A DNA stretch of 64,000 nucleotides from an uncultured Chloroflexia bacterium (GCA_963828165.1 CAWHDR010000001.1:64001-128000), one strand, 5' to 3'; shown: positions 5,619 through 61,733, counted from the first letter of the stretch. Numbers and translations: made by a program. The notes: generated by a model from the sequence alone, not told the origin.

Positions 5619-5624
5619 CCCGCG

Positions 5625-9235: not shown

Positions 9236-9249
9236 GCGCAAGGAGGGTT

Positions 9250-9699: not shown

Positions 9700-9830
9700 G
9701 AATCGTGCAGGCAGGGGACTAGGCCCTCCAGGCGAATGCGAACCCGAAAGACGGGGATCGCCGAATCACCCTACTCCGCCTGGCAAGCACGCGGAACCTG
9801 GGCAGGCACGGCGGAACTCGGCAATCGAAC

Positions 9831-37409: not shown

Positions 37410-38462
37410 TCAGGCTTCCTCGCGCTCGACGGCTACCCGGGAAGCCGGCTCGAGACGCGGCGCCGGCACGTCCGAGACGTTCGGGACGAACGAGGCGGCC
37501 ATCGAGGTCGCGGCAGCCTGCTGCTGGTCGTCCACGGACAGGATCCCGAGACGGCCAAGCTGGGCCATCTCATCGCGGATGTAGGTCTTGAGCATCTCGG
37601 GGCCGTCCGTGTTGATCGTGAACCGGATCTCGTTGCGCCGGAGCGTGTCGAAGATCCAGCGGAACTCGTCCCAGCTCGACACGACCTTCGTGTTGAGGTT
37701 GGAGGTCGGGCAGATCTCGAGCACGATCCCACGCTCGCGGATCATCTCCATGGCGCGCGGATCGTAGGCCGCCTTGACGCCATGGCCGATGCGGTCGGGC
37801 TCGAGCAGCTCCACCACCCGGGCGACCTCATCGACCGGGCCCGCCTCGCCGGTATGGACCGTGAGCCCCAGGCCGTACTGGCGAACTCGCCGGAAGAGTC
37901 GCTTGTAGTCGGCCACCCTGAAGGTCGATGCCTCGGGGCCGGCGATATCGACGCCGACGACACCGCGATCACGCCAGGCGATGGCCTTCTCAGCGATGAT
38001 CTCGTTGAGCTCGAACGGGAACGCGCGGTCGAGGCAGAAGATCAAGCCGGGCTTGATCGGATACTCGAGGGTCGCCTTGTCCATGCCCCGGACCGCCGCG
38101 GCGATGATGTGGTCGAGATCCTGCTCGCCGCCTCGGTTTCGCTTCATCGGATTGAAGCGCAGCTCCATCGTCGTGATGTTGTTCTTGCGGTAGGCGCCGC
38201 CGACGACCTCGTAGACGCTGCGCTCGACCGCCAACGGCGAGCTCTGGATGAGCTCGGTCCAATGGAACAGCTGCAGGTAGCCATCGAAGCTCTGGGTCCG
38301 CTTCGACACGGTGATCATGTCGCGGAATTCCCAGTAGTCCTTGGTCGGCAGCTTGATGCCCTGGGAATGGGCGATGCCCCACATGATGGCCGGGGTGACG
38401 GCGCCGCCGAGATGGCAATGCAGCTCCGCGAGCTGGATCTTGCGGGCAAGCTGACGAGCCAT
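37410..38462 (-). CDS. add: Adenosine deaminase family protein
   Basis: AELHCHLGG, ELRFNP, TVHTGE, RIGHG, EICPTSN, INTD. Confidence 0.88.
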   Translation of the reverse strand: MARQLARKIQLAELHCHLGGAVTPAIMWGIAHSQGIKLPTKDYWEFRDMITVSKRTQSFDGYLQLFHWTELIQSSPLAVERSVYEVVGGAYRKNNITTMELRFNPMKRNRGGEQDLDHIIAAAVRGMDKATLEYPIKPGLIFCLDRAFPFELNEIIAEKAIAWRDRGVVGVDIAGPEASTFRVADYKRLFRRVRQYGLGLTVHTGEAGPVDEVARVVELLEPDRIGHGVKAAYDPRAMEMIRERGIVLEICPTSNLNTKVVSSWDEFRWIFDTLRRNEIRFTINTDGPEMLKTYIRDEMAQLGRLGILSVDDQQQAAATSMAASFVPNVSDVPAPRLEPASRVAVEREEA

Positions 38463-38497
38463 GGTCGCAGGATACCCGGCGAGGCGGATCCAGGGCG

Positions 38498-39862
38498 TCA
38501 GCCGATGCGGATCATCTTCTTGTTCACGAACTCGTCGGCGCCGAAGCGGCCGAGCTCGCGGCCCGAGCCCGAGCGCTTGATGCCGCCGAAGGGTAGCTCG
38601 ACGCCGTCGGCGAGCACGACGTTCACGAAGACCATGCCGGCCTCGATGCCGTCGGCGACGCGCAGCGCCTGCTCCTTGTCGGTGCTGTACACGTACGAGC
38701 CCAGGCCGTACGGGGTGTCGTTCGCGATGCGCACGGCGTCTGCCTCGTCCTTCGCGCGGTAGACCTGCGCGACGGGGCCGAAGAATTCCTCCTTCGACGC
38801 GGGGTTCTCCGGCGTGACATCCGTCAGCACGGTCGTCTGGAAGAACGCACCGTCGCGGGTGCCGCCGTGGACGAGCGTGGCGCCGTGCTCGATCGCGCGC
38901 TTGACTTGCTCGTCGATGTTCTCGGCGGCCTTCAGCGACGACAACGGGCCGAGCGCCGCGTCGGCCGACGTCGGATCGGTCGCCTCGATCTCGGCGAGCT
39001 TCGCGGTGAACTTCTCGAGGAAGGGGTCGTACAGCTCGTCGGCGACGATGAAGCGCTTGGCCGCATTGCACGACTGGCCACTGTTGTCGAGGCGGGCGTC
39101 GACCGCGTTCTGCACCGTGGCGTCGAGGTCGTCGGTCGAGAGCAGGATGAACGGGTCCGAGCCGCCGAGCTCGAGCACGACCTTCTTCAGGTGGCGGCCG
39201 GCGATCTCGGCGACCGCGGCGCCGGCGCGCTCGGAGCCGGTGAGCGAGACGCCCTGCACGCGCGGGTCTGCGATGACCCGCTCGAGCTGGTCGTGCGAGG
39301 CGTAGACGTTCACGTAGGCGCCTGCTGGGAAGCCCGCGTCGAGGAAGATCTGCTGGATCGCGGCGGCGGACTCGGGGCACTGCGCGGCGTGCTTGAGCAG
39401 GATCGTGTTGCCGATGATGAGGTTCGGGCCGGCGAAGCGGGCGACCTGGTAGTACGGGAAGTTCCACGGCATGACGCCGAGCAGCACCCCGAGCGACGAG
39501 CGGCGGATGACCGCCGAGCCATCGCCGGCCAGGAGCTGGATGGGCTCGTCCTTCAGGAAGTCCGGCGAGTGGTCGGCGTAGTACTCGTAGATGTCCGCGG
39601 CGAAGTCGACCTCGCTGAGCGCCTGCCCGATCGGCTTGCCCATCTCACGCACGATGAGCTCCGCCAGTTCCTGACTGCGCTCGCGGTGCAGTTCGCTGAC
39701 GCGGCGGATGAGGGCCGCGCGCTCCTCGACCGTGGTCGACTTCGACCAGGTGCGGTGCGCCTCGTCGGCCGCGGCGACCGCGGCCTCGAGCTCGGCGTCG
39801 GTGATGATGTCGTAGGTCTTGACCGTCTCGCCCGTGGCGGGGTTGGTCACGGCATAGCTCAA
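38498..39862 (-). CDS. NAD(P)-dependent succinate-semialdehyde dehydrogenase family
   Basis: MPWNFPYYQVAR, LTGSERAG, LELGGSDP, NSGQSCNAAKR, EEFFGP, PFGGIKRSG. Confidence 0.92.
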   Translation of the reverse strand: MSYAVTNPATGETVKTYDIITDAELEAAVAAADEAHRTWSKSTTVEERAALIRRVSELHRERSQELAELIVREMGKPIGQALSEVDFAADIYEYYADHSPDFLKDEPIQLLAGDGSAVIRRSSLGVLLGVMPWNFPYYQVARFAGPNLIIGNTILLKHAAQCPESAAAIQQIFLDAGFPAGAYVNVYASHDQLERVIADPRVQGVSLTGSERAGAAVAEIAGRHLKKVVLELGGSDPFILLSTDDLDATVQNAVDARLDNSGQSCNAAKRFIVADELYDPFLEKFTAKLAEIEATDPTSADAALGPLSSLKAAENIDEQVKRAIEHGATLVHGGTRDGAFFQTTVLTDVTPENPASKEEFFGPVAQVYRAKDEADAVRIANDTPYGLGSYVYSTDKEQALRVADGIEAGMVFVNVVLADGVELPFGGIKRSGSGRELGRFGADEFVNKKMIRIG

Positions 39863-40082: not shown

Positions 40083-40799
40083 TCAGTCGCAGAAGGGCAG
40101 GAACTTGGGGCCGTGGCGACGCACGAGCTGGACGGTGAAGCCGGCTTTTGACGTGAAGATCGCCTGATCGGCCCCGACGGGGGCGATCGTCCCCTCGGCG
40201 GCGTTGATCGCGTCGCCGTGGTCGTAGTCGACGAGTCCGACCGGGTCCCACCAGCTCCCACCGTGATCGATCCCGCTCCAGATCCCGCAGTGCCCCAGCG
40301 AGAAGGGCTGCGGGCCACCGGGGATCGGCGGCCGCGAGGTGGGCGGTAGCTGGATGCCGAACGCCTCCTGGCGCTGGGCGTCCAGGTTCCCGTTCGTGAC
40401 CTTGATGTGGAAGCTCAGTGCGCCGCCGACGAACTCGAGCGTCATGTCGCCCTCGGAGCGCGCCACGAGCGTCGTCGGGCAACCTTGCCCTGCGGGGCAG
40501 CCGAACGGCCCGACCTGGACATAGCCGATCCTCGGGTCGTCGGCGGTCAGGAGGGTCGTGACGTGCGCCACGACGCGACGACAGTCCCCTTCCCCGAGGC
40601 CGATGCAGGCGGTGGGCACACGCGCCAGGTCCACGGCGCCTGCGGCGGTGGCGCTCGGCTGGGGTGGCTCGCTTGGGCTGGTGGTTGCCGACGGGCTCCC
40701 ACTGGCGCTCGCGCAGGCGGCGAGCAGGATGGTCACGACGACGAGGGACGCGATCTGGGCGATGGGTGGCCGCCTGACGGAGCGATGGGGGGTGCTCAT
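40083..40799 (-). CDS. Hypothetical lipoprotein
   Basis: Lipobox LAAC, several Cys, LGHCGI...WW motif, C-terminal FCD. Confidence 0.7.
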   Translation of the reverse strand: MSTPHRSVRRPPIAQIASLVVVTILLAACASASGSPSATTSPSEPPQPSATAAGAVDLARVPTACIGLGEGDCRRVVAHVTTLLTADDPRIGYVQVGPFGCPAGQGCPTTLVARSEGDMTLEFVGGALSFHIKVTNGNLDAQRQEAFGIQLPPTSRPPIPGGPQPFSLGHCGIWSGIDHGGSWWDPVGLVDYDHGDAINAAEGTIAPVGADQAIFTSKAGFTVQLVRRHGPKFLPFCD

Positions 40800-41952: not shown

Positions 41953-42925
41953 TCAGCCCTCGTCGAAGGTGGCGCGCAGGCCGGTGCCGAGGTCGCGCGG
42001 CCGGTAGCCGAGCTCCGTGGCCGCCTTGGCGGATGACGCCCAGTACGTGACGCCGAGGCCGGCTCGAAGCACCTCGCCCAGATCGTCCGGCAGGCCGGCC
42101 GCACGCGCCAGCGGCGCGGGTGCGTGGGAGCCGAGGCGGATGAGCGCCGTCGGCAGCTCCAATCGCGGCAGGCTGCGACCGCCGATCCGGGCGGCGACCC
42201 GCATCGCGTCACGCAGTCGCGTGTTCTCCCCACCAAGGATGTAGGACTCGCCGACACGGCCAAGGTCGAGTGCAGCCACGATGCCGGCCGCCACGTCCTC
42301 GACGTAAACGGCCGAGATCCCGACGTCCGCCAGGGCCATGTACCCAAGGCTGCCGTCGTGGGCGCCACGGATCTGCTGCCCGGTCCCCGAGTGGTCGCCC
42401 GGACCGTACGTGACGCCGGGCATGACGATGACGATCGGGGCGCCCGAAATCGACGCGCTCGCGGACCGCGCGGTGAGCGAGGTACTTCGTCTCGTCGTAG
42501 TAGTTCAGGAAGCCCTTGGACAGGTCCCGCCGGTAGCGCTCGTCGATGATCCGGCCCTGCGTGTTCCCGGCGACGTTGACCGTCGACACGTACACGAGGC
42601 GGTCCAGACCGGCCGTGGCGACCGCGTCGAGGATCCGATGGGTGACCCCGACGTTGGCATCGAGCATGGCCGGACGCATCGCGGCCGGGATGCCGACGCG
42701 GTACATCCCCGCGACGTGGATGGCGGCGTCGGTGCCGCGCATCGCATCGACGATGGCCGCGGTCCGCGACAGGTCTCCCGCCCGCATCTCCACCCCGAGG
42801 TCCGCCAGCTGCGCCGCCCGATCGGGATCGCGGACCACGGCCATGACCCGGTCGCCGCGTTGCACGAGCCGTCGCACGACCGCGAGCCCGATGAATCCGG
42901 CACCGCCGGTGACGAAGATGCGCAT
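41953..42925 (-). CDS. NAD-dependent epimerase/dehydratase (apparent +1 frameshift near 42443)
   Basis: VTGGAGFIG, YDETK; removing one G gives FGAPIVIVMPGVTYGPGD and a continuous protein. Confidence 0.85.
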
Positions 42926-42958: not shown

Positions 42959-44548
42959 TCAGTAGACAGGCGTCTCCGGCCCGATCGCCTCGAGCCAGGT
43001 CTTGATCGCCTTGAGGAGAGCTGCCGCCTGCGCGCCGTCGTTGGCGCGGTGATCGATCGCGAGGACCATGTTCATGATCGGCCGGATCGCGATGACGTCG
43101 CCGTCCGGCGTCTCCTGGACCACCGGGCGCTTGGTGATCGCCTCCATCGTCAGGATCGCGACCTCCGGCACGTTGATGATCGGCATGGTGAGGTTCGAGC
43201 CGAACCAGCCGGTGTTGTCGATCGTGAAGGTGCTTCCGCCGTAGTCGTCCAGCTTGAGCTTGCCCGCCCGAGCCCGGGCCGCCACGTCGGCGATCGCCCG
43301 GTTCAGGCCGCTGATGCTGAGCTGGTCGACGTCGCGGACGACCGGAACGAGGAGCCCGTCGTCGACGGCGACCGCCACGCCCATGTGGACACGCCGCTTG
43401 GCGAGCACGCCGTTCTCGGTCCAGTGGGCGTTGAATGCCGGGAAATCGCGCAGGGCGGCCACGGCAGCCTTGATCACGAAGGGCACGTAACTCAGCGAGA
43501 TGCCCTCGCGAGCCTGGTAGTCGCGCTTGGCCTTCTCGCGTGCCTTGACGAGGTTGGTGGCGTCGACCTCCATGTGCACGTACGCATGTGGGACCGCGAG
43601 GGCCCGGGTCATCTGCGCGGCGATGCCCTTGCGCATCTGGGTCATCGGGAGGAGGACCTCGTCGGCGCCCTCGGGGAACTCGATCGGGGCGCCGGCCGGC
43701 ATGCGGGCCGGTGGGGCGGCTGGGGCGGCTGGTGCCGCCGCGGCGGTAGGGGCAGGTGATCCACCGGTTGCGGGGGCCGAAGCCGTGGCAGTCGCTCCGT
43801 TGCCCTGGGACATGACCGGTACGGGTGGTGTCCCGCCGGTGCGAATCGATTCGACGACCGCCAGGACGTCGTCGCGGGTGATCCGCCCGCCACCACCCGT
43901 GCCCACGATCTGGTCTGGGCGGAGCGCGTGTTCGCGGAGCAGACGACGGACCGCGGGCGTCATCCGCGCGTCGGGGTCGCCGGTCGAGGTGGCGGAGGCG
44001 GCGGCTGTCGCGGTCGGAGCGGCTTGGGCTGTCGCGGTCGGAGTGGCTTGGGCGGCCGGGGCGGATCCGGCGGGAGCCGCGGCTGGCGCCTCCGCCGGCG
44101 TCGGGGTCGGGGTCGGGGTCGTCGGGGCCGGGGCGGGGGCAGCCGCGGCAGCACGGTCCGTGTCGGCCGGCGCCGACTCATCCGAACCGGCGGGTCCCTT
44201 GGCCGGCGCAGCCGCATCGGGGTCGCGCGGCTCGACCTGGGTCGTCCCTTCCGCCTCGGGCCCGCCTTCCTTCTCGAGCGCCATGGGCGCTGGCGCGTCG
44301 CCACCCGCCTCTTCGGCCGTCTCGATGATGGCGATCTCAGCGTTGTTCGGGACGGTCGCGCCCTCCTCGGCCAGGATCTCCTTGAGGACGCCTTCGAAGG
44401 GCGACGGGACCTCGGCGTTGACCTTGTCCGTGATGACTTCGAGCAGCGGTTCGTACTTCGCGACGGCGTCGCCCGGTTGCTTGAGCCACTTGCCGATCGT
44501 CCCCTCCGCGACGCTCTCGCCGAGCTGGGGCATCGTCACCTTTGCCAC
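42959..44548 (-). CDS. bkdB: Dihydrolipoamide acyltransferase (E2) of branched-chain 2-oxoacid dehydrogenase
   Basis: MPQLGESVAEGT, TDKVNAEVPSP lipoyl site, E3-binding TPAVRRL..GTGGGGRITRDD, DHRANDG. Confidence 0.92.
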   Translation of the reverse strand: MAKVTMPQLGESVAEGTIGKWLKQPGDAVAKYEPLLEVITDKVNAEVPSPFEGVLKEILAEEGATVPNNAEIAIIETAEEAGGDAPAPMALEKEGGPEAEGTTQVEPRDPDAAAPAKGPAGSDESAPADTDRAAAAAPAPAPTTPTPTPTPAEAPAAAPAGSAPAAQATPTATAQAAPTATAAASATSTGDPDARMTPAVRRLLREHALRPDQIVGTGGGGRITRDDVLAVVESIRTGGTPPVPVMSQGNGATATASAPATGGSPAPTAAAAPAAPAAPPARMPAGAPIEFPEGADEVLLPMTQMRKGIAAQMTRALAVPHAYVHMEVDATNLVKAREKAKRDYQAREGISLSYVPFVIKAAVAALRDFPAFNAHWTENGVLAKRRVHMGVAVAVDDGLLVPVVRDVDQLSISGLNRAIADVAARARAGKLKLDDYGGSTFTIDNTGWFGSNLTMPIINVPEVAILTMEAITKRPVVQETPDGDVIAIRPIMNMVLAIDHRANDGAQAAALLKAIKTWLEAIGPETPVY

Positions 44549-44665
44549 GTTCGCTGCTCCTTCGGGTCGCCTGGTCGCGCCAGCACGTACTCGCGTAGTT
44601 TCCTCCATCACGGCGATGCAGGTCGAGTCGGCAATCCGCGATGGTCAGCGTGCATGATGCGCTCG

Positions 44666-47437
44666 ATGTCCTCTGTCGACCATCGGCTCGCCCGCGCACT
44701 GGGCGTTCGCACCGGCGAAGGCCGCTTGGCCGCGCATGTCGCCCTCGTGTTCGCGGTCATCGAGGCGGGCCGCGGCTTCGGGGAGGTCGGCGTCGATACG
44801 CTGATCCTGGGTCGCTTCGGGGGCGACGCCCTGCCCGAAGTCCTGCCGTTCCTGTTCATGGCGCTCGGCGGGACGAGTCTCGTCGTCGCCCTGGCCTACG
44901 GTGCCGCGTTGGGGCGCCTGCCCCGGGGCCCGCTGTTCGTCGCGATCCTCACGGCGATCGCGGGACTCATCGTCGCCTTGCGCTTCGCTCTCGGCGATGG
45001 CTCCCTGGCGATCGTGGCCGTGTTGTGGTTGACCGTGTACGCGGCCGGGATGCTGGCCGTGACGATGTCCTGGACGGTGGCGAGTGGGTCATTCGACGCC
45101 CGGCAGGCCAAGCGCCTGTTCCCGCTGCTCACCGGGGCCGCGATCGCCGGCTCCTTCGTGGGGACCCTCGGCGCAGGGCCGGCGACGGCGATCGGCGGCG
45201 TCGAGGCCTTGATGGTGATCGAGGCGTCCATGTTGGTCGTGGCGGCGGCACTGATCGCGCGGCTCCCGCGCCGCTCCCCAGCGACCGCGGGTCGTGGTGC
45301 CCGTCGATCGATCGTCGGCGAGATCCTTGCGGGATACCAGTTCGTGGTCCGCTCCCCGTTGATGCGCCTCGTCGCGGTCGCCTACGTGCTGCTGGCGATC
45401 CTGATGTTCTCCGTGTCGTACCCGTTCCTCTTGGCCGCTTCGGCCGCCTTCCCGACGGACGTCGAACGCGCCACCGCGCTCGGGCTGCTGTCGGCAGCGG
45501 TGACCGCCACCTCGTTCATCGTCTCGGTCACGCTGGCCAACCGCATCTACACGAGGTTCGGGGTGACGACGGGTGCAGTCGTCCTGCCGGTCGTCTACCT
45601 CGCCGGGTTCGGGTTGTGGCTCGTCAGCTTCTCGTTCGCGACCGCTGCACTGGTCAGATTCGCCCAACAGGTGACCCAGCGGGGCATCTCGAACGCGGCC
45701 TGGAGCGCCTTCTACAGCACGGTCCCGGCCGAGCGACGAGCCCAGGTCATCGCCTTCAACGACGGGGTACCCGGGCAGGTCGGGATCATCCTGTCCGGCG
45801 CCCTGCTGCTGGCGGCCGGACGATTCCTCGCCGCGGACCAGGTGTTCTGGCTGGGCATCGTGACGGCCCTGGTGGCCACCGGCGTCGTCTGGGGGATCCG
45901 CAGCCGGTACGCGGGCAGCCTGTTACGGGCGTTGCGTTCGGGTGGGGCCGAGCAGGTGCTCGAGGGCGGGGCCGGGATGGGGGCGCTGGTGCGCGACCCG
46001 ACGGTGGTGGAGGCACTGCTCGAGGCCGTTCGAGCCCCGGAACCCGGGGTCCGCGAGATGGCCGTCACCGTGCTCGGGCGCACTGCGCCGCCCGGCTCGC
46101 GGGACGCGCTGGTCGAGGCGCTCGGCGACGGAGACGCGCGCGTCCGGGCCGCAGCGATCGGGGCGCTCGCCCGATCCGCCGACGGATCCGCGGGACTCGA
46201 CCTGGGCCCGTTCGCTTCGGACCCGAGCCCGCTCGTCCGGGCCGCAGCCATCGTCGCGAGGGCCGGACCGGAGGTCGCCCCCGGGAGTCCGCTGCTGTCC
46301 GATGTCTCGCCGGAGGTCCGGGCCGCGGCTCTCGGGCGCCTGCACGGCTCCGATCCGGAGCATCGGATCAGGCTGATCGCCGCCCTGGACGACGACGCCG
46401 CCATCGTCAGGGGGGCAGCGGCCACCGCGCTCGGCGCCTCGCCGAGCGACGGCCGCGATGTCCTGGCTGTCCTGACCGATGGAAGCTCGCGCGCCCAGCT
46501 CGCCGCGCTCAGCGCCTTGGCCGGAGTCGCGGAGAGCGATCCGTCCATTCGCGCGCCAGTAGCCGAGTGGGCCTTCGAGCGGCTGGGCCGCGCGCGCGAG
46601 CTGCGGACGGCCCGGCTCGCGATCGCCCGAGCTGCCAAACCCGGGGGCGCGGCGTCCGGTTCGCAGGCGTTCCTCGTATCCGTGCTGGATCGCCGGGAGG
46701 AGGCCCTCGAGGAGTCCGCACTCGCGGCGCTGGAGGTCCTCGGCGCACCGGAGGCCCGAGGCGTCATCCGGCGCTGCCTCGGATCGAACGATCCCGAGAT
46801 CCGCGCCCAAGCCATCGAAGCATTGGAGACCCTGGCCGATCGCCGGATCGCGACGGCCCTGATCCGCCTCCTCGAGGATGGCGCCGAAACGGGGGTCACG
46901 TCGGCCGACACGGCGCTCCGGCGCATGGCCGATGATGGGGACCCGTGGATCCGGGCATTGGCGCGACACTGCATCCTCGATGCCGGAGGAGACGACATGG
47001 CGGCGACTGAGCGGACCCTGTCCGACCTCGACACGATGCTGCTGCTGCGCAGGATCCCGTTGTTCGAGGGACTCGATCCCGAGGACCTGCAGCGGATCGC
47101 CGACACGTCCGAGGAGCGCACGTTCGACAACGGCGAGACGCTCATCCGCGAGGGCGAGGTCGGACACGAGCTCATCGTCATCGTGGATGGGTCCGTGCGG
47201 GTCGTCCAGGCCAACCCGGACGGCGGCGAACGGGAGATCCGCCGCTACGACGCCGGCCAGCACATCGGTGAGCTGGCCGTCCTGCGCGAGCGACCGCGCG
47301 CGGCAACCGTCGTCGCAGCCGAGCCCGTTCGCGGCCTCGTCATCAGCGGTGACGCGCTCAGGTCGATCCTGCGCGAGCGACCGGGGGCGGCGATGGCGAT
47401 GCTGGCCACGCTCGCCGACCGGATCAGCACGCAGTAG
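44666..47437 (+). CDS. Npt/TLC-like (MFS) transporter - HEAT repeats - cNMP-binding fusion
   Basis: ~12 TM helices with FDARQAKRLFP; HEAT repeats D-x3-VR-AA; C-terminal LRRIPLFEGL..IREGEVG..IGELAVL..PRAATV. Confidence 0.85.
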   Translation: MSSVDHRLARALGVRTGEGRLAAHVALVFAVIEAGRGFGEVGVDTLILGRFGGDALPEVLPFLFMALGGTSLVVALAYGAALGRLPRGPLFVAILTAIAGLIVALRFALGDGSLAIVAVLWLTVYAAGMLAVTMSWTVASGSFDARQAKRLFPLLTGAAIAGSFVGTLGAGPATAIGGVEALMVIEASMLVVAAALIARLPRRSPATAGRGARRSIVGEILAGYQFVVRSPLMRLVAVAYVLLAILMFSVSYPFLLAASAAFPTDVERATALGLLSAAVTATSFIVSVTLANRIYTRFGVTTGAVVLPVVYLAGFGLWLVSFSFATAALVRFAQQVTQRGISNAAWSAFYSTVPAERRAQVIAFNDGVPGQVGIILSGALLLAAGRFLAADQVFWLGIVTALVATGVVWGIRSRYAGSLLRALRSGGAEQVLEGGAGMGALVRDPTVVEALLEAVRAPEPGVREMAVTVLGRTAPPGSRDALVEALGDGDARVRAAAIGALARSADGSAGLDLGPFASDPSPLVRAAAIVARAGPEVAPGSPLLSDVSPEVRAAALGRLHGSDPEHRIRLIAALDDDAAIVRGAAATALGASPSDGRDVLAVLTDGSSRAQLAALSALAGVAESDPSIRAPVAEWAFERLGRARELRTARLAIARAAKPGGAASGSQAFLVSVLDRREEALEESALAALEVLGAPEARGVIRRCLGSNDPEIRAQAIEALETLADRRIATALIRLLEDGAETGVTSADTALRRMADDGDPWIRALARHCILDAGGDDMAATERTLSDLDTMLLLRRIPLFEGLDPEDLQRIADTSEERTFDNGETLIREGEVGHELIVIVDGSVRVVQANPDGGEREIRRYDAGQHIGELAVLRERPRAATVVAAEPVRGLVISGDALRSILRERPGAAMAMLATLADRISTQ

Positions 47438-47446
47438 GGTCACCAG

Positions 47447-50074
47447 ATGCAAGAGCTCGCCGAGAGACGCGACCTCCCGACCGGCACGGTCACCTTCCTG
47501 CGAACCGACGTCGAAAGCTCGATGGTGCTGGCACGCACGGCCGGCGCGGACTGGGACGCGCTCAATGCCACCCATGTCGCGCTCATACGCCGCGCGATCG
47601 TCGATCACGGCGGCGTGCTCGTTCGAACGGAGGGCGACGGGATCTTTGCCGTCTTCACGGACGCCGGAGCGGCAGTTGCCGCGGCCATCGACGGACAACG
47701 GCTGATCGGCGACCACGCCTGGCCGCGGGAGGCCACGATCCGGGTGCGGATGGCCCTCCACACGGGTGAGGCGCATCGGGCGGGGGACGACTACGGGGGC
47801 TTCGAGGTCAACCGCGCGGCACGGATCGCCGGCGCCGGGCACGGTGGGCAGATCGTCCTGTCGGAGGCCACCCGGGCACTGGCTGCCGATGTGTTGCCGG
47901 ACGGCGTTCTGGTCCGCGATCTGGGCCTCCATTCGCTCAAGGACGTTCCCCGCCCCGAACGGCTGTTCCAGCTGGACGTCCCCGGCCTGCGCACGGAGTT
48001 CCCACCCCTGCGCACGGCCGGGACCGCCTTGGGCGACGTCCCGGTCCCGCTGACGAGCTTCATCGGTCGGCGTCGAGAAGTCGGGGAGCTGCTCGAACTC
48101 CTGGAGGGTCACCGGCTGCTGACCCTGACCGGACCCGGTGGCATCGGCAAGACACGACTCGCGATCGAGCTCGCCCGGTCGAGTTCGACCGCCGCGCCGG
48201 ACGGCACGTGGTTCGTCGCGCTCGACGAGATCGAAGAGCCGGCGCTCGTTCCGTCGGCCATCGCGCGCACCATGGGTCTCTTCGACGGACCGGAGCGATC
48301 CGCCGCCGATGCGCTTCTCCCGTACCTGGCGGATCGCTCTGCGCTGCTGGTCCTGGACAACCTCGAGCACCTGATGGGAGCGACGTCCGACGTCACGGCG
48401 ATCCTCCGCGGCTCTCCCGGAACGCGTGTCGTGGTCACCAGCCGATCGCCGCTGCGGATCAGCGGCGAACAGGAGTATCCGGTTCGACCGCTCGAGGCGT
48501 CGGCCTCGGGAGCGCACGATTCGGTGGCCCTGTTCGTCGAGCGTGCGCAGCGGGTCCGGCCCGGGTTCGATCCCGGTCCCGAAGCCGCCACTATCGCCGA
48601 GATCTGCGAGCTGCTGGACGGGCTTCCGCTGGGCATCGAGCTCGCCGCGGCACGCACATCGCTGCTGCCACTGCCGGCGATCCGCGATCGTTTGGGGGCG
48701 CGCCTGCCGCTTCCGGGCGCCGGGCTCCGCGACGTGCCCGATCGACAACGGACGTTGGAGGGTGCGATCAGCTGGAGCTACGCCCTGCTGCCGCCGGAGC
48801 GGCAGCGTCTGCTGCGCGACATCTCCGTCTTCGACGGGGGATTCGATCTCGAGCAGGTCGACGCCCTCCAGGGCGGCGCCGATGTGCTCGATGGGCTCCT
48901 GGAACTCGTCGACCAGAGCCTCCTGATGCGTGAATCCGGTGGTGAGATCCGCTTCCGGATGCTGCGGACGATCGGGACGTTCGCGTTGGCCGAGCTGGAG
49001 GCCGAGGGCCGATCCACAGAGCTCCGGCGACAGCACGCGCTTGCATATCTGGCGCTTGCCGAGACCGCGGCGCCCAACCTGCCGGGTGCGGATCAACCTC
49101 GCTGGCTCGATCGGCTCGGCCTGGACCACGCGAATCTGCGAGCCGCGATGCGCTGGGCACTCGACGCGGGCGAGGTGGACCTGGCATTCCGGCTCCTCGC
49201 CGGGCTGTGGCGGTACTGGCAGCTTGACGGCCACCTGGCCGAGGGCGCCGAGCTGGCCCACGCCGCGATCTCCCTGCCCGGGGCGGAGCTCCCGACGCCG
49301 CATCGCCTCGCGGCCATCACTGCCCTGGGCAACATCGCCTACTGGCAGGGTCGTGCCGATGAGGCGGTCCGCTACTACGAGGAGCAGCTGGCGCTGGCTC
49401 GCGAGCTTGGGGACCGCGCCGCGGAAGCGGATGCGGTCTTCAACCTCTCGTACGGCGCCTTCATCCGTCAGGACTTCGCGCTCACCTACGAGCGGGTGGA
49501 AACCGCGCGGGCCCTGTACCTGGAGGTCGGCGACGCCCGCGGCGCGGCTCGGACCGACTGGAGCCTGGCGACCGCTGTCATGAGCGAGGGACGGCCGGGC
49601 GATGCCCTGCCGATGTTCGAGGCAGCCGCGGAACGCTTCGCCGAGCTCGGCGACGTCTGGTACCACGCGATGGCGACCGGCAGCGTCGCGTGGGCCATGT
49701 TCGCGACTGGCGACATGCGCGGTGCCACGCACAAGTTCGCGGAGTCCCTGGCCGAGTACCGCGCGCTGCGCGACGTCGGAACCACCGCGATCTCCATCCA
49801 GATCGGCGCGATCGTCGCGCTGATCGCCGGTCGACCGGAGGACGCGGCTGTGCTGCTCGGCGCCACCGAGAGCCTGACCGAGCGATACGGGGTCGTGCCA
49901 CCAGCCGGCCTCGCATGGCTGATCGGCGCCCAGAACCCGAATGAGCGGGTGGCGGAGGTGCTCGAACCGGACGTGCTGGCGTCCGCGCTTGAACGGGGCC
50001 GGCGATTCGGTCTCGACGAGGCGGTGGAACTCGTCGTCCGGATCGAATCCGAATTGCCTACGGTCGAGAGATAG
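47447..50074 (+). CDS. Class III adenylate/guanylate cyclase - STAND NTPase - TPR protein
   Basis: TFLRTDVESS, TEGDG, EVNRAARI; Walker A TGPGGIGKTRLA, Walker B LLVLDNLEH, DGLPLGIELAA; C-terminal TPR-like helices. Confidence 0.92.
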   Translation: MQELAERRDLPTGTVTFLRTDVESSMVLARTAGADWDALNATHVALIRRAIVDHGGVLVRTEGDGIFAVFTDAGAAVAAAIDGQRLIGDHAWPREATIRVRMALHTGEAHRAGDDYGGFEVNRAARIAGAGHGGQIVLSEATRALAADVLPDGVLVRDLGLHSLKDVPRPERLFQLDVPGLRTEFPPLRTAGTALGDVPVPLTSFIGRRREVGELLELLEGHRLLTLTGPGGIGKTRLAIELARSSSTAAPDGTWFVALDEIEEPALVPSAIARTMGLFDGPERSAADALLPYLADRSALLVLDNLEHLMGATSDVTAILRGSPGTRVVVTSRSPLRISGEQEYPVRPLEASASGAHDSVALFVERAQRVRPGFDPGPEAATIAEICELLDGLPLGIELAAARTSLLPLPAIRDRLGARLPLPGAGLRDVPDRQRTLEGAISWSYALLPPERQRLLRDISVFDGGFDLEQVDALQGGADVLDGLLELVDQSLLMRESGGEIRFRMLRTIGTFALAELEAEGRSTELRRQHALAYLALAETAAPNLPGADQPRWLDRLGLDHANLRAAMRWALDAGEVDLAFRLLAGLWRYWQLDGHLAEGAELAHAAISLPGAELPTPHRLAAITALGNIAYWQGRADEAVRYYEEQLALARELGDRAAEADAVFNLSYGAFIRQDFALTYERVETARALYLEVGDARGAARTDWSLATAVMSEGRPGDALPMFEAAAERFAELGDVWYHAMATGSVAWAMFATGDMRGATHKFAESLAEYRALRDVGTTAISIQIGAIVALIAGRPEDAAVLLGATESLTERYGVVPPAGLAWLIGAQNPNERVAEVLEPDVLASALERGRRFGLDEAVELVVRIESELPTVER

Positions 50075-50086
50075 CGGCGGGCTGGC

Positions 50087-50818
50087 TCAGGACGCCGGCG
50101 TCCCCGCCGAACTCGCGTCCGCGTGCGATTCCGCGTCAGCGTCAGTCTCGACGTCACCAAGGGTGAGCCAGCCCTGACGGGCCGCAAACGTGACAGCACG
50201 GACACGGTTGGGCACCCCCAGCTTGTGCAGGATGCTCGACACGTGGTTCTTGACCGTCTGCTCGCTGACGTCGAAGAGCTCCCCGATCTCGCGGTTGCGC
50301 TTCCCTCCGGCGATCAGGCGGAGGACGTCCAGCTCCCTCGGGGTCAGCGGGTTGGTCGTTGGGCCGTCCGGGTGTCGGGTGCTCTCCCGGAAGCCCTCCA
50401 TGATCCTGTCGATCAGATCGGGCCTTCCGATCACCTCGGCGCGCAATGGATCTTCGCCATCGGCGACCTGGCGGATCACCGCCACGAGCTCGGCAGGCTT
50501 CGCAGCGGCGGCAACGTGACCCGCTGCGCCGATCTCGACGGCCCCCAGGATGCTCGCGTCGTCGTCTTCACGACCGACGACCACGATCCCGGAAGTCGGG
50601 GCCTCCAGGACGAGTCGCTGGGAGGCGGCACTGGTTTCGGGCTCCTGCAGCTCCACGTCGAGGATGAACACGTCGGGGGCGTCATCCCGGGCGACCGCAA
50701 GCGCGTCGTCGGCAGAGCGGACCTCCGCGACGACCTCCATGTCGACCTCGCGATCGAGGACGCCGCGGATCCCCAGACCCGCGAGGGTCCTGGGTTCGAC
50801 GAGGACGATCCGAATCAT
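50087..50818 (-). CDS. NarL/LuxR family response regulator
   Basis: REC domain (PDVFILDV) and LTPRELDVLRLIAGGKRNREIG...TVKNHVSSILHKL; start may be 50833. Confidence 0.9.
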   Translation of the reverse strand: MIRIVLVEPRTLAGLGIRGVLDREVDMEVVAEVRSADDALAVARDDAPDVFILDVELQEPETSAASQRLVLEAPTSGIVVVGREDDDASILGAVEIGAAGHVAAAAKPAELVAVIRQVADGEDPLRAEVIGRPDLIDRIMEGFRESTRHPDGPTTNPLTPRELDVLRLIAGGKRNREIGELFDVSEQTVKNHVSSILHKLGVPNRVRAVTFAARQGWLTLGDVETDADAESHADASSAGTPAS

Positions 50819-50906
50819 GTCGCGACCAGGCATCGTTGCAGGCTGTGATCGTCCCATCGTGGTGCGTCTCCTGGGCGCTGGGGGTACGCGCTTGCGTGGA
50901 GGCTAC

Positions 50907-51150
50907 CTACGAACGGCACATCGCGCATGACCCGAAGGGACCAACTTCGCGCGAGCCGTTCGTTCTCCCATCGGCGCTCGCCCATGCAACGACTTGCGAG
51001 TGCGTGGCAACTCGTAGATCGCGCTGCGCCGCACCCCAGGGCGTATCGCCGCCCGTGGCCTCGTTGCCCGTGACGTGCATGCGCGCGGCATACGGCGAGA
51101 GCATGGCCTTGAACCGATCGAACAGCAGCCCGAATTCGTCCGGCTGCCAC
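50907..51150 (-). pseudogene. Possible degraded gene fragment
   Basis: GGAGG then GTG GCA GCC, continuing after a one-base shift as DEFGLLFDRFKAMLSPYAARMHVT, then losing codon bias. Confidence 0.3.
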
Positions 51151-51166
51151 CCCCGTGCCCTCCGCG

Positions 51167-52150
51167 TCAGTACGCCGCCAGCGTCCGGATGCCCGCTTCG
51201 ATCTTCTCGGGACTGACCATGAACCAGTCCTCGAGAACGTGGTTGTACGGCACGCCCGGGACGTCCGGCCCCGCGATGCGCGTGACCGGCCCGTCGAGGT
51301 AGTCGAACGCCTCTTCGGCGACGATCGCCGCGACTTCCGCGCCGTACCCGCCGAACCGGTTGTCCTCGTAGACGATCAGGCACTTGCCGGTCTTGCGGAC
51401 CGACTCGAGGACGGTCTCGGTGTCCAGCGGGCGGAGCGTCCGCAGGTCGACCACCTCCACGCTGATCCCATCGTCCGCGACGCGGTCCGCGGCCTCGAGC
51501 GCGTAGTGCGCCATGAGCCCGTACGCGATGACCGATACCTGCGAGCCCGGGTGCGTGACCGCCGCCTTGCCCAGGGGAACCGTGTAGTCGGTGTCCGGCA
51601 CATCGCCTCGCACGGAGCGGTACATCTTCTTGTGCTCGAAGAACAGCACGGGGTCCTCGTCGCGGATCGACGCGCGAAGCAGGCCGCGAGCGTCGTACGG
51701 TGTGGACGGGATCACGACCTTGAGGCCCGGCACGTGGGTGAAGAACGCCTCGACGCTCTGCGAATGATAGAGCGCGCCGTGGACGCCGCCGCCGTACGGG
51801 GCCCGGATCACCATCGGGACGCCGTAGCCGTTGTTCGAGCGATATCGCATCCGTGCCGCCTCGGACACGATCTGGTTGAACGCCGGGAAGATGAAGTCGG
51901 CGAACTGGATCTCGGCGATCGGCCGGAGGCCGTTCACGGCAGCGCCGATCGACGCGCCGATGATCATCGATTCGGTGAGCGGCGTATCGATCACCCGGTC
52001 GTCGCCGAACTCCGCCCACAGACCGTCCGTGGCGAGGAACACGCCGCCCTTCTTGCCGACGTCCTCGCCCAAGACGATGATCGACTCGTCCCGGCGCATC
52101 TCGTCCGCCAGCGTCTCGCGGATCGCCTCGATGAACGTCCTTGCCGGCAT
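51167..52150 (-). CDS. bkdA2: 2-oxoacid dehydrogenase E1 beta
   Basis: GEDVGKKGGVF, DTPLTES, EIQFADF, HGALYHSQS, FFEHK. Confidence 0.92.
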   Translation of the reverse strand: MPARTFIEAIRETLADEMRRDESIIVLGEDVGKKGGVFLATDGLWAEFGDDRVIDTPLTESMIIGASIGAAVNGLRPIAEIQFADFIFPAFNQIVSEAARMRYRSNNGYGVPMVIRAPYGGGVHGALYHSQSVEAFFTHVPGLKVVIPSTPYDARGLLRASIRDEDPVLFFEHKKMYRSVRGDVPDTDYTVPLGKAAVTHPGSQVSVIAYGLMAHYALEAADRVADDGISVEVVDLRTLRPLDTETVLESVRKTGKCLIVYEDNRFGGYGAEVAAIVAEEAFDYLDGPVTRIAGPDVPGVPYNHVLEDWFMVSPEKIEAGIRTLAAY

Positions 52151-53212
52151 CTACTCGGTGTCCTCGGCGAACACGTAGCGCATGGCGGTGGACGGATCGG
52201 GGTCGGGCTGGGACTCGGCGTAGTCGGTCGCCTCCTCTACCGAGGCCTTGATCTCGGCCGTCAGCCGCTCCTCGATCTCGTCGGTGAGGACGCCGGCGTC
52301 GCGCAGCTGCGCCCGGAAGGCCGGCACGGGGTCGCGCTCGCGCTCGGCCGCGAGCTCGTCCTCGCTCCGGTACTTCGTCTGCTGGTCGTCCGAGGAGTGA
52401 CCGGTCAGGCGGGTGACCTTGGCCTCGATGAGCGTGGGGCCGTCCCCTGCCCGCGCCCGGGCGACCGCGTCGCGCGCGGCTGCATAGCAGGCCAGGACGT
52501 CGTTGCCGTCCACGATCACGCCGGGGATGCCGTATCCGGCCGCACGATCGGCAACGTTCGGGCTCGACACCTGGCGCGCCATCGGGACGCTGATCGCGTA
52601 GCCGTTGTTCTCGACCACGTAGATGAACGGGAGCTTGTGGATCGCCGCGAAGTTCAGGCCCTCGTGGACGTCGCCCTGGTTGCTGCTCCCCTCCCCCATG
52701 CTCGTCATCGCGACCTGGCCGGTCTTGCGGACCTTGGCCGCGAGCGCGATCCCGACCGCGTGGAGCAGCTGCGTCGCCACCGGCGACGAGACGCTGACGA
52801 GGTTGTGCTCGTGCGAGCCGTAATGCCCGGGCATCTGGCGACCGCCGGAGCTCGGGTCGTTGGCGGTCGCGTACTGCGCCGTCAGGATGTCGCGCGGGCT
52901 CATCCCGAACGTGAGACACGTGGCGATCGAGCGATAGAACGGGGCGATCCAGTCGTGGCCACGCTTGAACGCCCAGGCGATCCCGACCTGGGCGCCCTCG
53001 TGGCCCTGACCGGAGATGACGAACGGGATCCGCCCGGCTCGGTTGAGGATCCACATCCGCTCGTCGAGCGAGCGGGCAAGCGCGACATAGCGGTACATCT
53101 CGACGAGGTCGGCGTCGGTCAGGCCGACCGAGGCCGCGAGGCTGCCCGCCGCTTCGCCGGGGGCGGCGCCCTCGGTGCCTCCCTTGGCGGCGTCGCTCTT
53201 GGTCACGGCCAT
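52151..53212 (-). CDS. bkdA1: 2-oxoacid dehydrogenase E1 alpha (branched-chain type)
   Basis: GQGHEGAQ, DPSSGGRQMPGHY, GEGSSNQGDVHEGLNFA...ENNGYAIS, GHSSDD. Confidence 0.92.
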   Translation of the reverse strand: MAVTKSDAAKGGTEGAAPGEAAGSLAASVGLTDADLVEMYRYVALARSLDERMWILNRAGRIPFVISGQGHEGAQVGIAWAFKRGHDWIAPFYRSIATCLTFGMSPRDILTAQYATANDPSSGGRQMPGHYGSHEHNLVSVSSPVATQLLHAVGIALAAKVRKTGQVAMTSMGEGSSNQGDVHEGLNFAAIHKLPFIYVVENNGYAISVPMARQVSSPNVADRAAGYGIPGVIVDGNDVLACYAAARDAVARARAGDGPTLIEAKVTRLTGHSSDDQQTKYRSEDELAAERERDPVPAFRAQLRDAGVLTDEIEERLTAEIKASVEEATDYAESQPDPDPSTAMRYVFAEDTE

Positions 53213-53231
53213 CGTGGTCGATCGGCCTCCG

Positions 53232-54674
53232 TCAGAAGTTGATGGACCGGCCGTCCACCGCCATCGCCGCTTCGCCGATGACCTCGGACAGGGTCGGGTG
53301 GGCGTGGGTCGCGCCGCCGATCTCCCACGCGGTCGCGTCGAGCTCGAAGGCAAGCGAGGCCTCGGCGATGAGGTCGGTGGCATGCGGTCCGACGATGTGG
53401 ACGCCGAGGATGTCCTGGTTCTCCGGGTTCGAGATGACCTTCGCGAAGCCCTCGTACTCGCCGCCGATGATGGCTTTGGCGATGGCCTGGAACGGGACCT
53501 TGCCCACCTTGTACGGCGTGCCCGTCGCCTTGACCTGCTCCTCGGTCAAACCGATCGAAGCGATCTCGGGGTGGCAATACGTGGCGCGGGGCTGCTTCGT
53601 GTAGTCCATCTCGTGGACATCGGCTTCGCCGGCGATCACGTGCGCCGCGATGAGCCCCTCGTGCGCGGCGGTGTGGGCCAGCCACAAGCCGCCGATGATG
53701 TCGCCGATGGCGTAGACGTGCGACTCCTTCGTGCGCATCCGTCCGTTGACCTTGATGACGCCCTTGTCGGTCTCGACCTTGGTCGTCTCGAGGCCGATCT
53801 CCTCGATGTTCGCAGCTCGACCGGTCGCGACGAGCATCATGTCGGCGCGCAGCTCCCCTTGTTCCTTGCCCTCGGGGCCGACCATCAGGCAGATGCCGTC
53901 CTTGTCCGTGCTGACTGCCGCCGGATCGAAGCGGGCGTTGGTCATCACCGTCATGCCGCGCTTCTCGAACGAGCGCTGGACGACCTTCCCGACCTCGGCG
54001 TCTTCGAGCGGGACGATCTGGGGCGCGTACTCGAGCAGCGTCACCTTCACGCCGACGTCGTGGAACATCGAGGCGAACTCGACGCCGACGGCGCCGGCTC
54101 CGACGATCACGATGTCCTTGGGCAGGGTGGTCATGCGCAGGATGTCGTCGCTCGTGACGATCTTCTGACCGTCGGGATCCAGGCCCGGCAGGCTCTTGAC
54201 ACGAGAGCCGGTCGCGAGGATGACGTCCGTCGCCTGGAGGACCCGCTCGCCACCCTTGCCGGGGGTGCCGTCCTCACCGGGTTGGGCGACGCGGATCTTC
54301 TGCGGGCCGTCGAGGCGGCCTCGGCCGTCGATCCAGGTGACCTTGTTCTTGTCGACGAGGGTCTTGAGCCCGGTCCACATCCGCTTCACGACCTGGTCCC
54401 GCCGCGCCGCCATCTGCGCGTAGTCGATGGTGGCCTCGCCCGGGAGCGTGAGTCCGAAGTCCTTCGCGTGGCGAAGGCGGTCGGCGAACGCGGCCAATTC
54501 GAGCAGCGCCTTGGTCGGGATACAGCCGCGGTGGAGGCATGTGCCGCCGATCTTGCCCTCGTCGACGAGCGCAACCTTGAGCCCGAGCTGGCCCGCACGG
54601 AAGGCGGCCGTGTACCCGCCCGTGCCAGCGCCGAGCACGACGAGGTCGAAGTCGTTGGAGGAGCCGACGGCCAT
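53232..54674 (-). CDS. lpdA: Dihydrolipoyl dehydrogenase (E3)
   Basis: GAGTGGY, GGTCLHRGCIPTK, HAHPTLSE. Confidence 0.96.
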   Translation of the reverse strand: MAVGSSNDFDLVVLGAGTGGYTAAFRAGQLGLKVALVDEGKIGGTCLHRGCIPTKALLELAAFADRLRHAKDFGLTLPGEATIDYAQMAARRDQVVKRMWTGLKTLVDKNKVTWIDGRGRLDGPQKIRVAQPGEDGTPGKGGERVLQATDVILATGSRVKSLPGLDPDGQKIVTSDDILRMTTLPKDIVIVGAGAVGVEFASMFHDVGVKVTLLEYAPQIVPLEDAEVGKVVQRSFEKRGMTVMTNARFDPAAVSTDKDGICLMVGPEGKEQGELRADMMLVATGRAANIEEIGLETTKVETDKGVIKVNGRMRTKESHVYAIGDIIGGLWLAHTAAHEGLIAAHVIAGEADVHEMDYTKQPRATYCHPEIASIGLTEEQVKATGTPYKVGKVPFQAIAKAIIGGEYEGFAKVISNPENQDILGVHIVGPHATDLIAEASLAFELDATAWEIGGATHAHPTLSEVIGEAAMAVDGRSINF

Positions 54675-61651: not shown

Positions 61652-61733
61652 GCCACGAGGATAGCCCGGGTGAAGCCGTCGTTGATGGCGGGGTGAGCGG
61701 CACGCGGTAGGATGCGAAAGCAGCATTCACGAG

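Follow-up and report, generated by a model that had tools for sequence, protein, structure and literature searches.

Within a window of 64,000 nt from a soil Chloroflexota bacterium (the window being the whole stretch of DNA that was analysed), the region 44666..50074 carries a pair of genes on the plus strand, the first for a predicted membrane carrier with a cNBD (cyclic-nucleotide-binding domain) and the second for a predicted sensor protein with a nucleotidyl cyclase domain. Gene 1 (44666..47437, 923 aa) was delimited by its open frame and by domain matches. Three in-frame ATG codons at positions 44654, 44657 and 44666 are candidates for its start, and ATG 44654, which extends the protein to 927 aa, fits best because an identical database protein has exactly this length. 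The stop codon TAG of gene 1 is located at 47435-47437, and gene 2 (47447..50074, 875 aa) starts with the ATG at 47447, only 9 bp 3' of gene 1. Two co-directional genes with this spacing had been described in the initial annotation of the window, and a check of both open frames and a measurement of the spacer gave the same coordinates.

The protein encoded by gene 1 consists of three parts. The first part (44666..45955, about aa 1-430) is predicted to form an NTT/TLC-type membrane domain with 12 helices, as judged from an AlphaFold2 model, Foldseek, profile searches and the Atlas. Pfam yields a weak TLC match for the N-terminal 430 residues (E 0.0034). The AlphaFold2 model, which was built on 44 relatives, reaches a pLDDT of 87.3 and a pTM of 0.86 and contains 12 long helices in a 6+6 arrangement. 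Using this model for a Foldseek search of the PDB, the ranks 1 to 3 were taken by the ATP/ADP translocators AtNTT1 (9j3m and 9j3l) and C. pneumoniae NTT1 (9j3n) with TMq values of 0.69-0.76; the identity in these structural alignments is only 16-17%, and general MFS transporters score nearly equal (SPNS2, TMq 0.71-0.72). With E values of 1.4e-4 and 3e-4, AtNTT1 and C. pneumoniae NTT1 were the only proteins of the entire PDB matched by the sequence profile of the membrane domain, and all 30 nearest named clusters in the Atlas are exchanger families for nucleoside triphosphates and diphosphates (NTP/NDP; score 0.97).

The membrane domain is followed by a HEAT-repeat region (45983..47005, about aa 440-780; HEAT_2 4.5e-24 and 85 bits, HEAT 4.3e-15 and 54.8 bits in Pfam), the profile of which matches alphaRep and HEAT structures, and by the C-terminal cNBD (47048..47434, about aa 795-923). 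Residues 818-904 match cNMP_binding (PF00027, 1.1e-20, 73.8 bits), and the profile of this part matches the cyclic-nucleotide-binding domains of PKA and PKG. Within the phosphate-binding cassette GELAVLRERPRAAT all 20 relatives compared share Gly868, Glu869, Arg878 and Ala880 without exception. Pfam, AlphaFold2 and Foldseek therefore agree with the initial assignment of a transporter fused to HEAT repeats and an intact-looking cNBD, and gene 1 displays the features of the NTT-HEAT-cNBD family, namely an NTT/TLC-type carrier domain, HEAT repeats and a C-terminal cNBD with an intact cassette. Full-length relatives of the protein comprise 568 cluster representatives at E <= 1e-30. One protein of 3779 aa (P0305) shows 12 stretches that match the search query, the best one over the cNBD, and may be a giant protein with multiple cNBDs.

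Gene 2 encodes a nucleotidyl cyclase domain of class III (47474..48001, about aa 10-185), a STAND NTPase of the NB-ARC/AP-ATPase type which resembles AfsR (48044..49126), and a TPR region that presumably acts as sensor (49127..50071, about aa 561-875). The cyclase domain is closest to the class III cyclase Ma1120 (E 2e-17), with Rv1900c/LipJ-type cyclases at 1e-6 and the cyclase part of the NCBIfam LipJ model at 1.3e-11. Alignment to Ma1120 identified Asp21, Asp64, the purine-contacting Asp115 and the motif Asn122-x3-Arg126, so both metal-binding Asp residues and the N-x3-R motif that had been noticed at first are indeed in place (Asp21, Asp64, Asn122 and Arg126). In the 75 sequences of the family alignment these columns are widely kept: Asp21 in 72, Asp64 in 74, Asp115 in 75, Asn122 in 63 (Ser in 11) and Arg126 in 75. 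Gene 2 contains Arg60 in place of the canonical Lys, and Arg occupies this position in 68 of the 75 family members. Positions 60 and 115 we take to be the substrate-specifying pair (Lys plus Asp for ATP), on the basis of the Ma1120 alignment and of general knowledge of the motif. The NTPase part scores above the Pfam cut-off for NB-ARC (26.2 bits versus 23.5), with Walker A at aa 229-236 and Walker B at aa 300-308; AfsR (8k60) aligns over the NOD domain with E 4e-7, and the C-terminal part matches TPR_12 (4.3e-10, 40.1 bits). Both domain types ascribed to gene 2 earlier, the STAND NTPase and the TPRs, were thus recovered. GerE or any other helix-turn-helix (HTH) or DNA-binding domain was absent from the gene 2 protein at E <= 0.01, and TPRs form its C-terminal end. 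In most of the longer relatives of the NOD-TPR module, the module is combined with BTAD, GerE, HTH or kinase domains, and in some with Guanylate_cyc.

The conservation of the pairing was analyzed in relatives of the carrier. One genome per species was scanned, the best 80 loci out of 107 relatives were kept, and counterparts of gene 2 were located by tblastn with three parts of this gene. According to the record titles, almost all of these loci come from Chloroflexota or Candidatus Limnocylindria and three from Actinomycetota. A gene 2-like cyclase gene lies directly beside the carrier gene on the same strand in 74/80 loci. It is directly downstream in 72 and directly upstream in two (L056 and L061), where the gene order is reversed yet the genes remain adjacent, and the other six loci had no match. 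The 72 downstream cases include L005, which has a remnant of 55 residues only, and L026, which is cut by the contig end; L039, one of the six without a match, has an AlkZ-like gene in the place of the cyclase. An unbiased sample of the class with 401 genomes contained the carrier in 44 genomes, 28 with the main clade and 16 with a clade of 34-38% identity, a tally that includes the unpublished genomes G478 and G506; within the host genus 17 of 28 genomes possess it. The cyclase gene is adjacent in 26 of the 28 genomes with the main clade, or 25 of 27 if the unpublished G478 is left out. It is lacking in G444, and the fragmentation of G426 allowed no call. The pairing proposed in the initial annotation is therefore no peculiarity of a single genome.

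The association runs from the carrier to the cyclase and not from the cyclase to the carrier. The assumption that every cyclase-STAND-TPR gene has a neighbour with a cNBD was rejected, because among the 20 best-scoring cyclase-STAND-TPR loci without carrier an adjacent cNBD gene was present in only four (L102, L117, L118 and L119), the rest being located next to genes for ABC-2 transporters, amidohydrolases, GMC oxidoreductases, MFS proteins, NUDIX proteins and the like. At L102 (G573:C6:19400-30100, positions 3293-7093, minus strand) a gene of 128 aa which encodes only a cNBD precedes the cyclase-STAND-TPR gene at the same E1/E2 site of a 2-oxoacid dehydrogenase operon that harbors the pair in the window. 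Its product is 70% identical to the cNBD of the carrier, and it looks like the product of a gene fission or like a carrier gene from which the membrane domain and the HEAT repeats were lost. A host paralogue, L085 (G000:C1:2015000-2031000), consists of a cyclase-STAND-TPR gene at 6309-9227 (minus strand) and cNBD genes at about 9128-9517 (minus strand) and at 9186-10115 (plus strand); the small cNBD gene is directly upstream, with the divergent cNBD gene and a flavin monooxygenase gene alongside. This layout recurs in L117, L118 and L119. As a side observation, 38 matches at E <= 1e-8 on the many contigs of genome G564 amount to at least 20 paralogues of the cyclase-STAND-TPR type, a large lineage-specific expansion.

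Carriers that are more distantly related adjoin other kinds of cyclase genes. At L076 two genes with the domain order Zn-ribbon-Guanylate_cyc-AAA_16-TPR are located downstream of the carrier. In another Chloroflexota family, with carriers of 31-33% identity, a DUF2652 gene with or without an SRPBCC domain lies directly upstream in three of four genomes. DUF2652 is described as a predicted class III cyclase-like family in the available text of PMC4886424; a sequence search of the PDB with the DUF2652 neighbour yielded designed-repeat noise only, and its kinship to cyclases is taken from this publication. The six loci that were examined in the clade with 34-38% identity have one stand-alone cyclase gene (L095), two Ser/Thr kinase genes and, in three cases, neither. 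A metagenome scan with an alignment of the distant carriers provided 65 loci, and the 89 nearest neighbour frames, available for 62 of the 65, were scanned with Pfam. A cyclase or DUF2652 domain was found in an immediate neighbour at 19 of the 65 loci: eight DUF2652-SRPBCC proteins, three Ad_Cy_reg-cyclase proteins or their cut equivalents, four plain cyclases, three cyclase-STAND-TPR proteins and one TPR-cyclase. Fifteen of these genes are directly upstream on the same strand, one is downstream on the same strand and three are convergent. Three further metagenome loci have STAND/TPR genes that are cut by the contig start.

The host genome of 3.31 Mb has 11 matches to PF00211, which together with the cyclase of the window makes about 12 cyclase genes, and 11 matches to PF00027. 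From about 12 cyclase genes in 3.31 Mb and two neighbours per carrier, chance adjacency is expected at about 0.75%, compared with the observed 74/80 and 19/65. Two further places in the host genome contain a cyclase domain and a cNBD within 2.5-4 kb (G000:C2:33111-36384 and G000:C1:2846104-2851014). A renewed scan of L054, L055 and L063, which had no cyclase match, detected an upstream frame of 529 aa without Pfam family at L055 and SRPBCC-like and M23 peptidase neighbours at L054. In one carrier clade (L097, L100, L138, L139 and L141) a Ser/Thr protein kinase gene is located directly upstream, in the place that the cyclase takes in other clades, and a PIG-L deacetylase gene is convergent downstream. 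In the four metagenome loci L125, L126, L133 and L171 the gene downstream of the distant carrier is PLD-like (PLDc_2) and has the same orientation, and L133 also has a DUF2652 gene upstream.

Fusions of both genes exist as well. The protein P0123 (2154 aa) contains transmembrane helices, HEAT repeats (521-680), a cNBD (905-990), Guanylate_cyc (1036-1207), AAA_16 (1234-1422) and TPRs (1747-2090), and this order is the order of the domains across gene 1 and gene 2. A second protein, P0303 (2129 aa), is collinear with P0123 over the full length at 47% identity, and for this reason the fusion of carrier and cyclase is a conserved gene and not an assembly slip. In these proteins from two lineages the cyclase begins about 45 residues past the cNBD within one polypeptide. 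When fusions were sought from the cyclase side, HEAT_2 or cNMP_binding was found in none of the 120 longer gene 2 relatives listed.

The histories of both genes were compared by trees of the window and 42 loci with both genes single and full-length; the other 38 of the 80 loci, with frames that were cut, broken or partnerless, were omitted. The patristic distances in the carrier and cyclase trees of these 43 pairs correlate with r = 0.46. The cyclase alignment rejects the clade of the carrier tree which consists of the window, L001-L004 and L006 (delta lnL 478.6, p-AU 6.5e-56), and the carrier alignment rejects the pair of L004 and L025 of the cyclase tree (delta lnL 203.6, p-AU 1.1e-53), p-values that overstate the case because the groups were named after both trees had been seen. 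The conflict between both trees is large despite this choice of groups. Since the trees disagree, the sensors have been swapped between lineages while the adjacency was kept. Two or three cyclase-STAND-TPR genes in tandem were found in L034, L041, L068, L073 and L080, and the copies compared in L041, L068, L073 and L080 are 51-78% identical. The TPR region is the fastest-evolving part of gene 2: over 48 loci the median identity to the window is 92% for E1 beta of the 2-oxoacid dehydrogenase complex, 85% for lipA, 67% for the cyclase domain, 58% for the NOD domain, 53% for the carrier and 45.5% for the TPRs. A sensor that is replaced or multiplied while the link to the carrier is retained fits better to a diffusible messenger than to a co-evolved protein interface.

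These comparative genomic data strongly support a coupling of the two genes, and we consider it probable that the pair constitutes a dedicated, private circuit in which a sensor controls a membrane carrier via a cyclic nucleotide monophosphate (cNMP) for physiological purposes. The observations comprise the domain architecture, intact residues for catalysis and ligand binding, the conserved adjacency, the recruitment of other cyclase types and the fusion. According to this model a ligand or protein would bind to the TPRs of gene 2, and the NTPase would change to the ATP form and oligomerise, by analogy to AfsR and MalT. Oligomerisation would unite the N-terminal cyclase domains as catalytic dimers, as expected from the biochemistry of class III cyclases. 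The cyclase would then produce a 3',5'-cyclic nucleotide, most likely cyclic AMP (cAMP), with cyclic GMP as a possibility, beside the carrier or tethered to it. Binding of this messenger to the C-terminal cNBD of gene 1 would be relayed by the HEAT arm to change the activity of the carrier, and the cargo, as judged by the fold, is probably a nucleotide or a nucleotide-like cofactor. The initial proposal of a self-contained module for signalling or defence thus holds with respect to the coupling, which is backed by the adjacency, by the other cyclase types and by the two lineages with fused genes; its defence half lacks such backing.

Several points weigh against a private circuit. Cyclase activity, messenger, binding to the cNBD, cargo and gating are all taken from the biology of the respective families, and both key Pfam matches stay below their cut-offs (TLC 16.7 versus 21 bits, Guanylate_cyc 18 versus 21.9 bits). 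The nature of the cyclase product is uncertain because Arg replaces the adenine-specifying Lys in 68/75 family members. With about 12 cyclases and 11 cNBDs in the genome, cross-talk is possible. The adjacencies at the 80 loci are not independent, because these loci stem mostly from one class and share the synteny with E2 and E1 beta, so that much of the conservation reflects gene order kept by descent. Carriers are also kept without a cyclase: L005/G444 have a remnant only, L039 has the AlkZ-like gene, and a copy in G752 contains stop codons. A cyclase neighbour is present in only one of the six loci examined in the clade with 34-38% identity, and no cyclase turned up at 43 of the 62 metagenome loci for which neighbours were scanned. 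Far more of the 401 class genomes possess the cyclase-STAND-TPR family than the carrier, 340 versus 44 (the former tally includes 15 unpublished genomes), and the low share of cNBD neighbours at carrier-less cyclase loci, the post-hoc groups in the tree comparison and a published immune prediction for cyclase-STAND fusions, which is discussed below, have to be added to this list.

In the window the pair is located antiparallel within a 2-oxoacid dehydrogenase/lipoate cluster at 42959-54674. The order of genes is lpd, E1 alpha, E1 beta and a REC-GerE regulator on the minus strand, the pair on the plus strand, and E2, a small frame without family and lipoyl synthase on the minus strand. The E2 gene (42959..44611, minus strand; 2-oxoacid_dh 1.4e-73) is divergent from gene 1, with a distance of 42-54 bp between the starts. 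Convergent with gene 2 are the genes for a response regulator with REC and GerE/LuxR domains (50087..50857, minus strand), 13 bp past gene 2, for E1 beta (51167-52150, minus strand) and for E1 alpha (52151-53383, minus strand). A response-regulator-like gene occurs in only eight of the 80 loci, six of them close relatives, the other two being L050 and L078 with 33% identity and at a distance of several kb; it is probably not part of the carrier-cyclase unit. E2 flanks the pair in 57/80 loci, E1 beta is downstream in 59/80, and both are present in 50/80. Four congeneric genomes without the carrier were examined. E1 beta continues straight into E2 and lipA on one strand in G664, G612 and G690, and in G124 only a piece of E2 matched. 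Because E1 beta adjoins E2 in carrier-less congeners, the pair represents either an insertion into a fixed operon site or a clean loss from it. Outside the dehydrogenase cluster the pair was found in L027, L029, L067, L072, L073 and the Actinomycetota loci L050 and L078.

Several further observations concern this neighbourhood. The frames at 41953-42423 (minus strand, between E2 and lipA) and at 40083-40799 (minus strand, after lipA) have a coding-like GC content at third codon positions and no Pfam family at E <= 0.01. In L050 and L078 the pair is divergent from a different E2 gene (37-38% identity), and in L078 also from lpd, which hints at a metabolic tie to the dehydrogenase complex in two lineages only. 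As two lineages are too few, the idea that the pair works together with the 2-oxoacid dehydrogenase complex was set aside. Adenosine deaminase genes are located near the carrier in the window (37410-38498, minus strand, 6 kb) and at L061 (2866-3945, plus strand, 4 kb); the sole PADLOC match of the former is to the deaminase part of the CARF-ADA model. Other purine-related neighbours, genes for HIUase and a xanthine-dehydrogenase-like protein, were found in L029 and L072. A scan of 44300-50400 for promoters and terminators revealed no site of either kind; this type of scan is uninformative for Chloroflexota. Contigs of a soil metatranscriptome (X2), where carry-over of DNA is possible, include short fragments of gene 2, such as 48653-48818 without difference. 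No piece of X2 spans the 9-bp junction, and a DNA run (X1) has scattered pieces, so that these data are uninformative with respect to co-transcription.

An unlikely alternative to a private circuit is mere co-expression: the cNBD would read the cAMP pool of the whole cell, filled by a dozen cyclases, and gene 2 would be one contributor that shares the transcript. The numbers of about 12 cyclase genes and 11 cNBDs in the genome are consistent with such a pool, as are the carriers that outlast the loss of the adjacent cyclase (L005, L039 and G444), the carrier clades without any cyclase neighbour and the incongruent trees, which give no sign of partner-specific co-evolution. However, the adjacency survives changes of gene order, of genomic context and of the sensor itself, several unrelated cyclase types have been recruited beside the carrier, and the tethering of the cyclase about 45 residues past the cNBD in two lineages is difficult to account for unless it is advantageous to make the messenger locally.

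A role in defence, which the initial annotation had offered as a Pycsar-like mechanism of nucleotide efflux, appears improbable. The pair would then be an anti-phage system that combines an NLR/Avs-type sensor with a second messenger: the TPR-STAND part senses an invader, the cNMP opens the carrier, and loss or exchange of ATP, NAD or deoxynucleotides leads to abortive infection. Equally improbable is its formulation as an NLR-like sentinel with a nucleotide carrier as effector, in which sensing of an invader or of danger raises the cNMP, the gated carrier drains or exchanges nucleotides and the infected cell is arrested. The architecture of gene 2, an N-terminal effector followed by STAND and C-terminal repeats, is that of immune STAND proteins, and in the available text of a preprint (10.64898/2026.08.12.744502) cyclases fused to STAND NTPases are predicted to be immune and are placed in 'Immune clade 1'. 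The patchy distribution of the carrier (44/401 in the class, 17/28 in the genus) with remnants and decayed copies, the sensor gene that is swapped between lineages and duplicated in tandem, the fast evolution of the TPR part and the genome with at least 20 family copies also speak for a defence system. If the sentinel reading were true, sensor swapping, tandem copies, patchiness and decay would be the traces of an arms race, the operon site would be a stable landing pad, and the pair would represent a new effector class for messenger-based immunity.

The searches with PADLOC argue against this role. The PycC cyclase model did not match the gene 2 protein at E <= 0.01; its sole match was to a generic TPR model (6.8e-7), and no Avs/NLR model was hit. 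The Pycsar effector models (PycTIR and others) match only the generic cNBD of gene 1 (51 bits, residues 809-921). PADLOC recognised no defence system among the 24 flanking frames from 26 to 64 kb, and defence genes are absent over about 15 kb around the pair, so the proximity to a defence island that had been suggested for a check was not observed. One frame of the window at 60728-61726 (minus strand), 11 kb from the pair, matches a 'Type II nicking endonuclease' model of PADLOC (3.6e-29). The only conflict-type neighbourhood seen is that of the distant carrier at L084 (12521-16841, plus strand), where genes for a TIR-WD40 protein (1002 aa) and SLATT_1 are located 1.5 kb downstream, and this one locus speaks for defence. 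On the other side, the pair occupies a fixed antiparallel site in a 2-oxoacid dehydrogenase operon (50-59 of 80 loci) and not a mobile island, and the paralogues adjoin genes of metabolism or transport. We favour physiological control over defence because of this fixed metabolic site and because neither defence models nor defence neighbours were found; because sister clades of the carrier pair with cyclases that are regulated by SRPBCC or Ad_Cy_reg, domains of the small-molecule or pH-sensing type; and because fusions with transcription factors or kinases prevail among the NOD-TPR module's longer relatives and the NTT-HEAT family is, according to the available passages of PMC5381601, retained even in Chlamydiaceae.

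It is quite unlikely that the membrane domain is something other than a nucleotide carrier, that is, a transporter for other cargo or a receptor or anchor whose HEAT arm recruits partners; control by a cNMP would still hold in this case. HEAT repeats are protein-interaction modules, the similarity to NTT proteins is remote (16-17% identity, profile E of about 1e-4, TLC below the Pfam cut-off), and the MFS transporter SPNS2 fits nearly as well. The NTT-HEAT proteins are, moreover, described as uncharacterised in the passages of PMC5381601. Against this stand the three best structural matches and the only sequence matches in the PDB, all of them ATP/ADP translocators, the 30 nearest named Atlas clusters, all NTP/NDP exchangers, and the published phylogeny, which in the text of PMC5381601 places NTT-HEAT fusions inside the NTT family. 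Finally, the absence of any functional link, with the adjacency as synteny inherited within one bacterial class, would agree with the non-independent relatives among the 80 loci, most of them Limnocylindria-type Chloroflexota with the same E2, E1 and lipA flanks, but it is very improbable and strongly disfavoured in view of the adjacency in other contexts and another phylum, the reversed order in L056 and L061, the different cyclase families beside distant carriers, the conserved fused proteins, and frequencies of 74/80 and 19/65 against about 0.75% by chance.

A private circuit between sensor and carrier would be assembled from parts of known kinds, since the architecture of the carrier, cyclase-STAND-TPR proteins and linked pairs of cyclase and receptor genes have all been described. 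Mycobacterial proteins of the Rv0386 type have the order cyclase-ATPase-TPR-HTH with a C-terminal LuxR-type HTH domain, and the STAND regulators of the AfsR/SARP and MalT types combine, like gene 2, an NB-ARC/AP-ATPase NOD domain with subsequent TPRs. Gene 2 differs from all of these in that a DNA-binding domain is absent, the cyclase is the sole output and the gene is tied to a carrier with a cNBD. The order of effector, STAND and repeats is shared with the antiviral Avs/NLR-like STAND proteins, the models of which gave no match. AtNTT1 (9j3j/9j3l/9j3m) and C. pneumoniae NTT1 (9j3n/9j3o), the best structural and only PDB sequence matches of the membrane domain, have neither a HEAT nor a cNBD tail, unlike gene 1, and share 16-17% identity with it. 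In Pycsar and Pucsar a cyclase gene likewise stands beside the gene of an effector with a cNBD, which is the same logic, but the effectors given in the available text of the preprint (10.64898/2026.08.12.744502) are of the cNBD-TIR or cNBD-transmembrane type, whereas here a 12-helix NTT-type carrier with HEAT repeats, and no TIR or 3TM domain, is present; in addition, the cyclase of gene 2 is without a PycC match and the pair without a defence context. The gene pair XC_0250/XC_0249 of Xanthomonas campestris is, as far as the available text of PMC3770947 goes, a further example of genetic linkage between a class III cyclase and its cNMP receptor; this receptor is no carrier but part of a signalling pathway, and the cyclase has no STAND-TPR sensor.

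The closest relatives in the literature are the NTT-HEAT-cNBD fusions (Major, Embley and Williams 2017, Genome Biol Evol; PMC5381601), which have the same three-part order as gene 1, with NTT, HEAT and a C-terminal cNBD. The passages of this paper describe them as monophyletic, widespread and functionally uncharacterised, and it is speculated there that the cNBD could bind cAMP made by adenylate cyclase. NTT-HEAT(-cNBD) proteins are reported from many free-living bacteria, Chlamydiaceae and oomycetes, with no function or regulator known. The main-text passages, which list only two Chloroflexi sequences, report no linkage to a cyclase, whereas in our loci the cyclase is adjacent or fused. Literature searches yielded no description of a conserved pairing, or occasional fusion, between a sensor cyclase and an NTT-HEAT-cNBD carrier. 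The suggestion that the window contains an undescribed system therefore applies to the pairing with the cyclase, while the carrier fusion as such has been described since 2017.

The pairing provides a first handle on the control of a widespread carrier family, with gene 2 as the predicted writer, the cNBD as the reader and transport as the output. It also points to a modular design, in which STAND-TPR, SRPBCC, Ad_Cy_reg and Zn-ribbon-AAA_16-TPR sensors would feed the same kind of predicted cNMP-gated carrier. The exchange of sensors at a retained carrier, finally, illustrates one way in which cNMP signals may be kept private in bacteria that possess a dozen cyclases.

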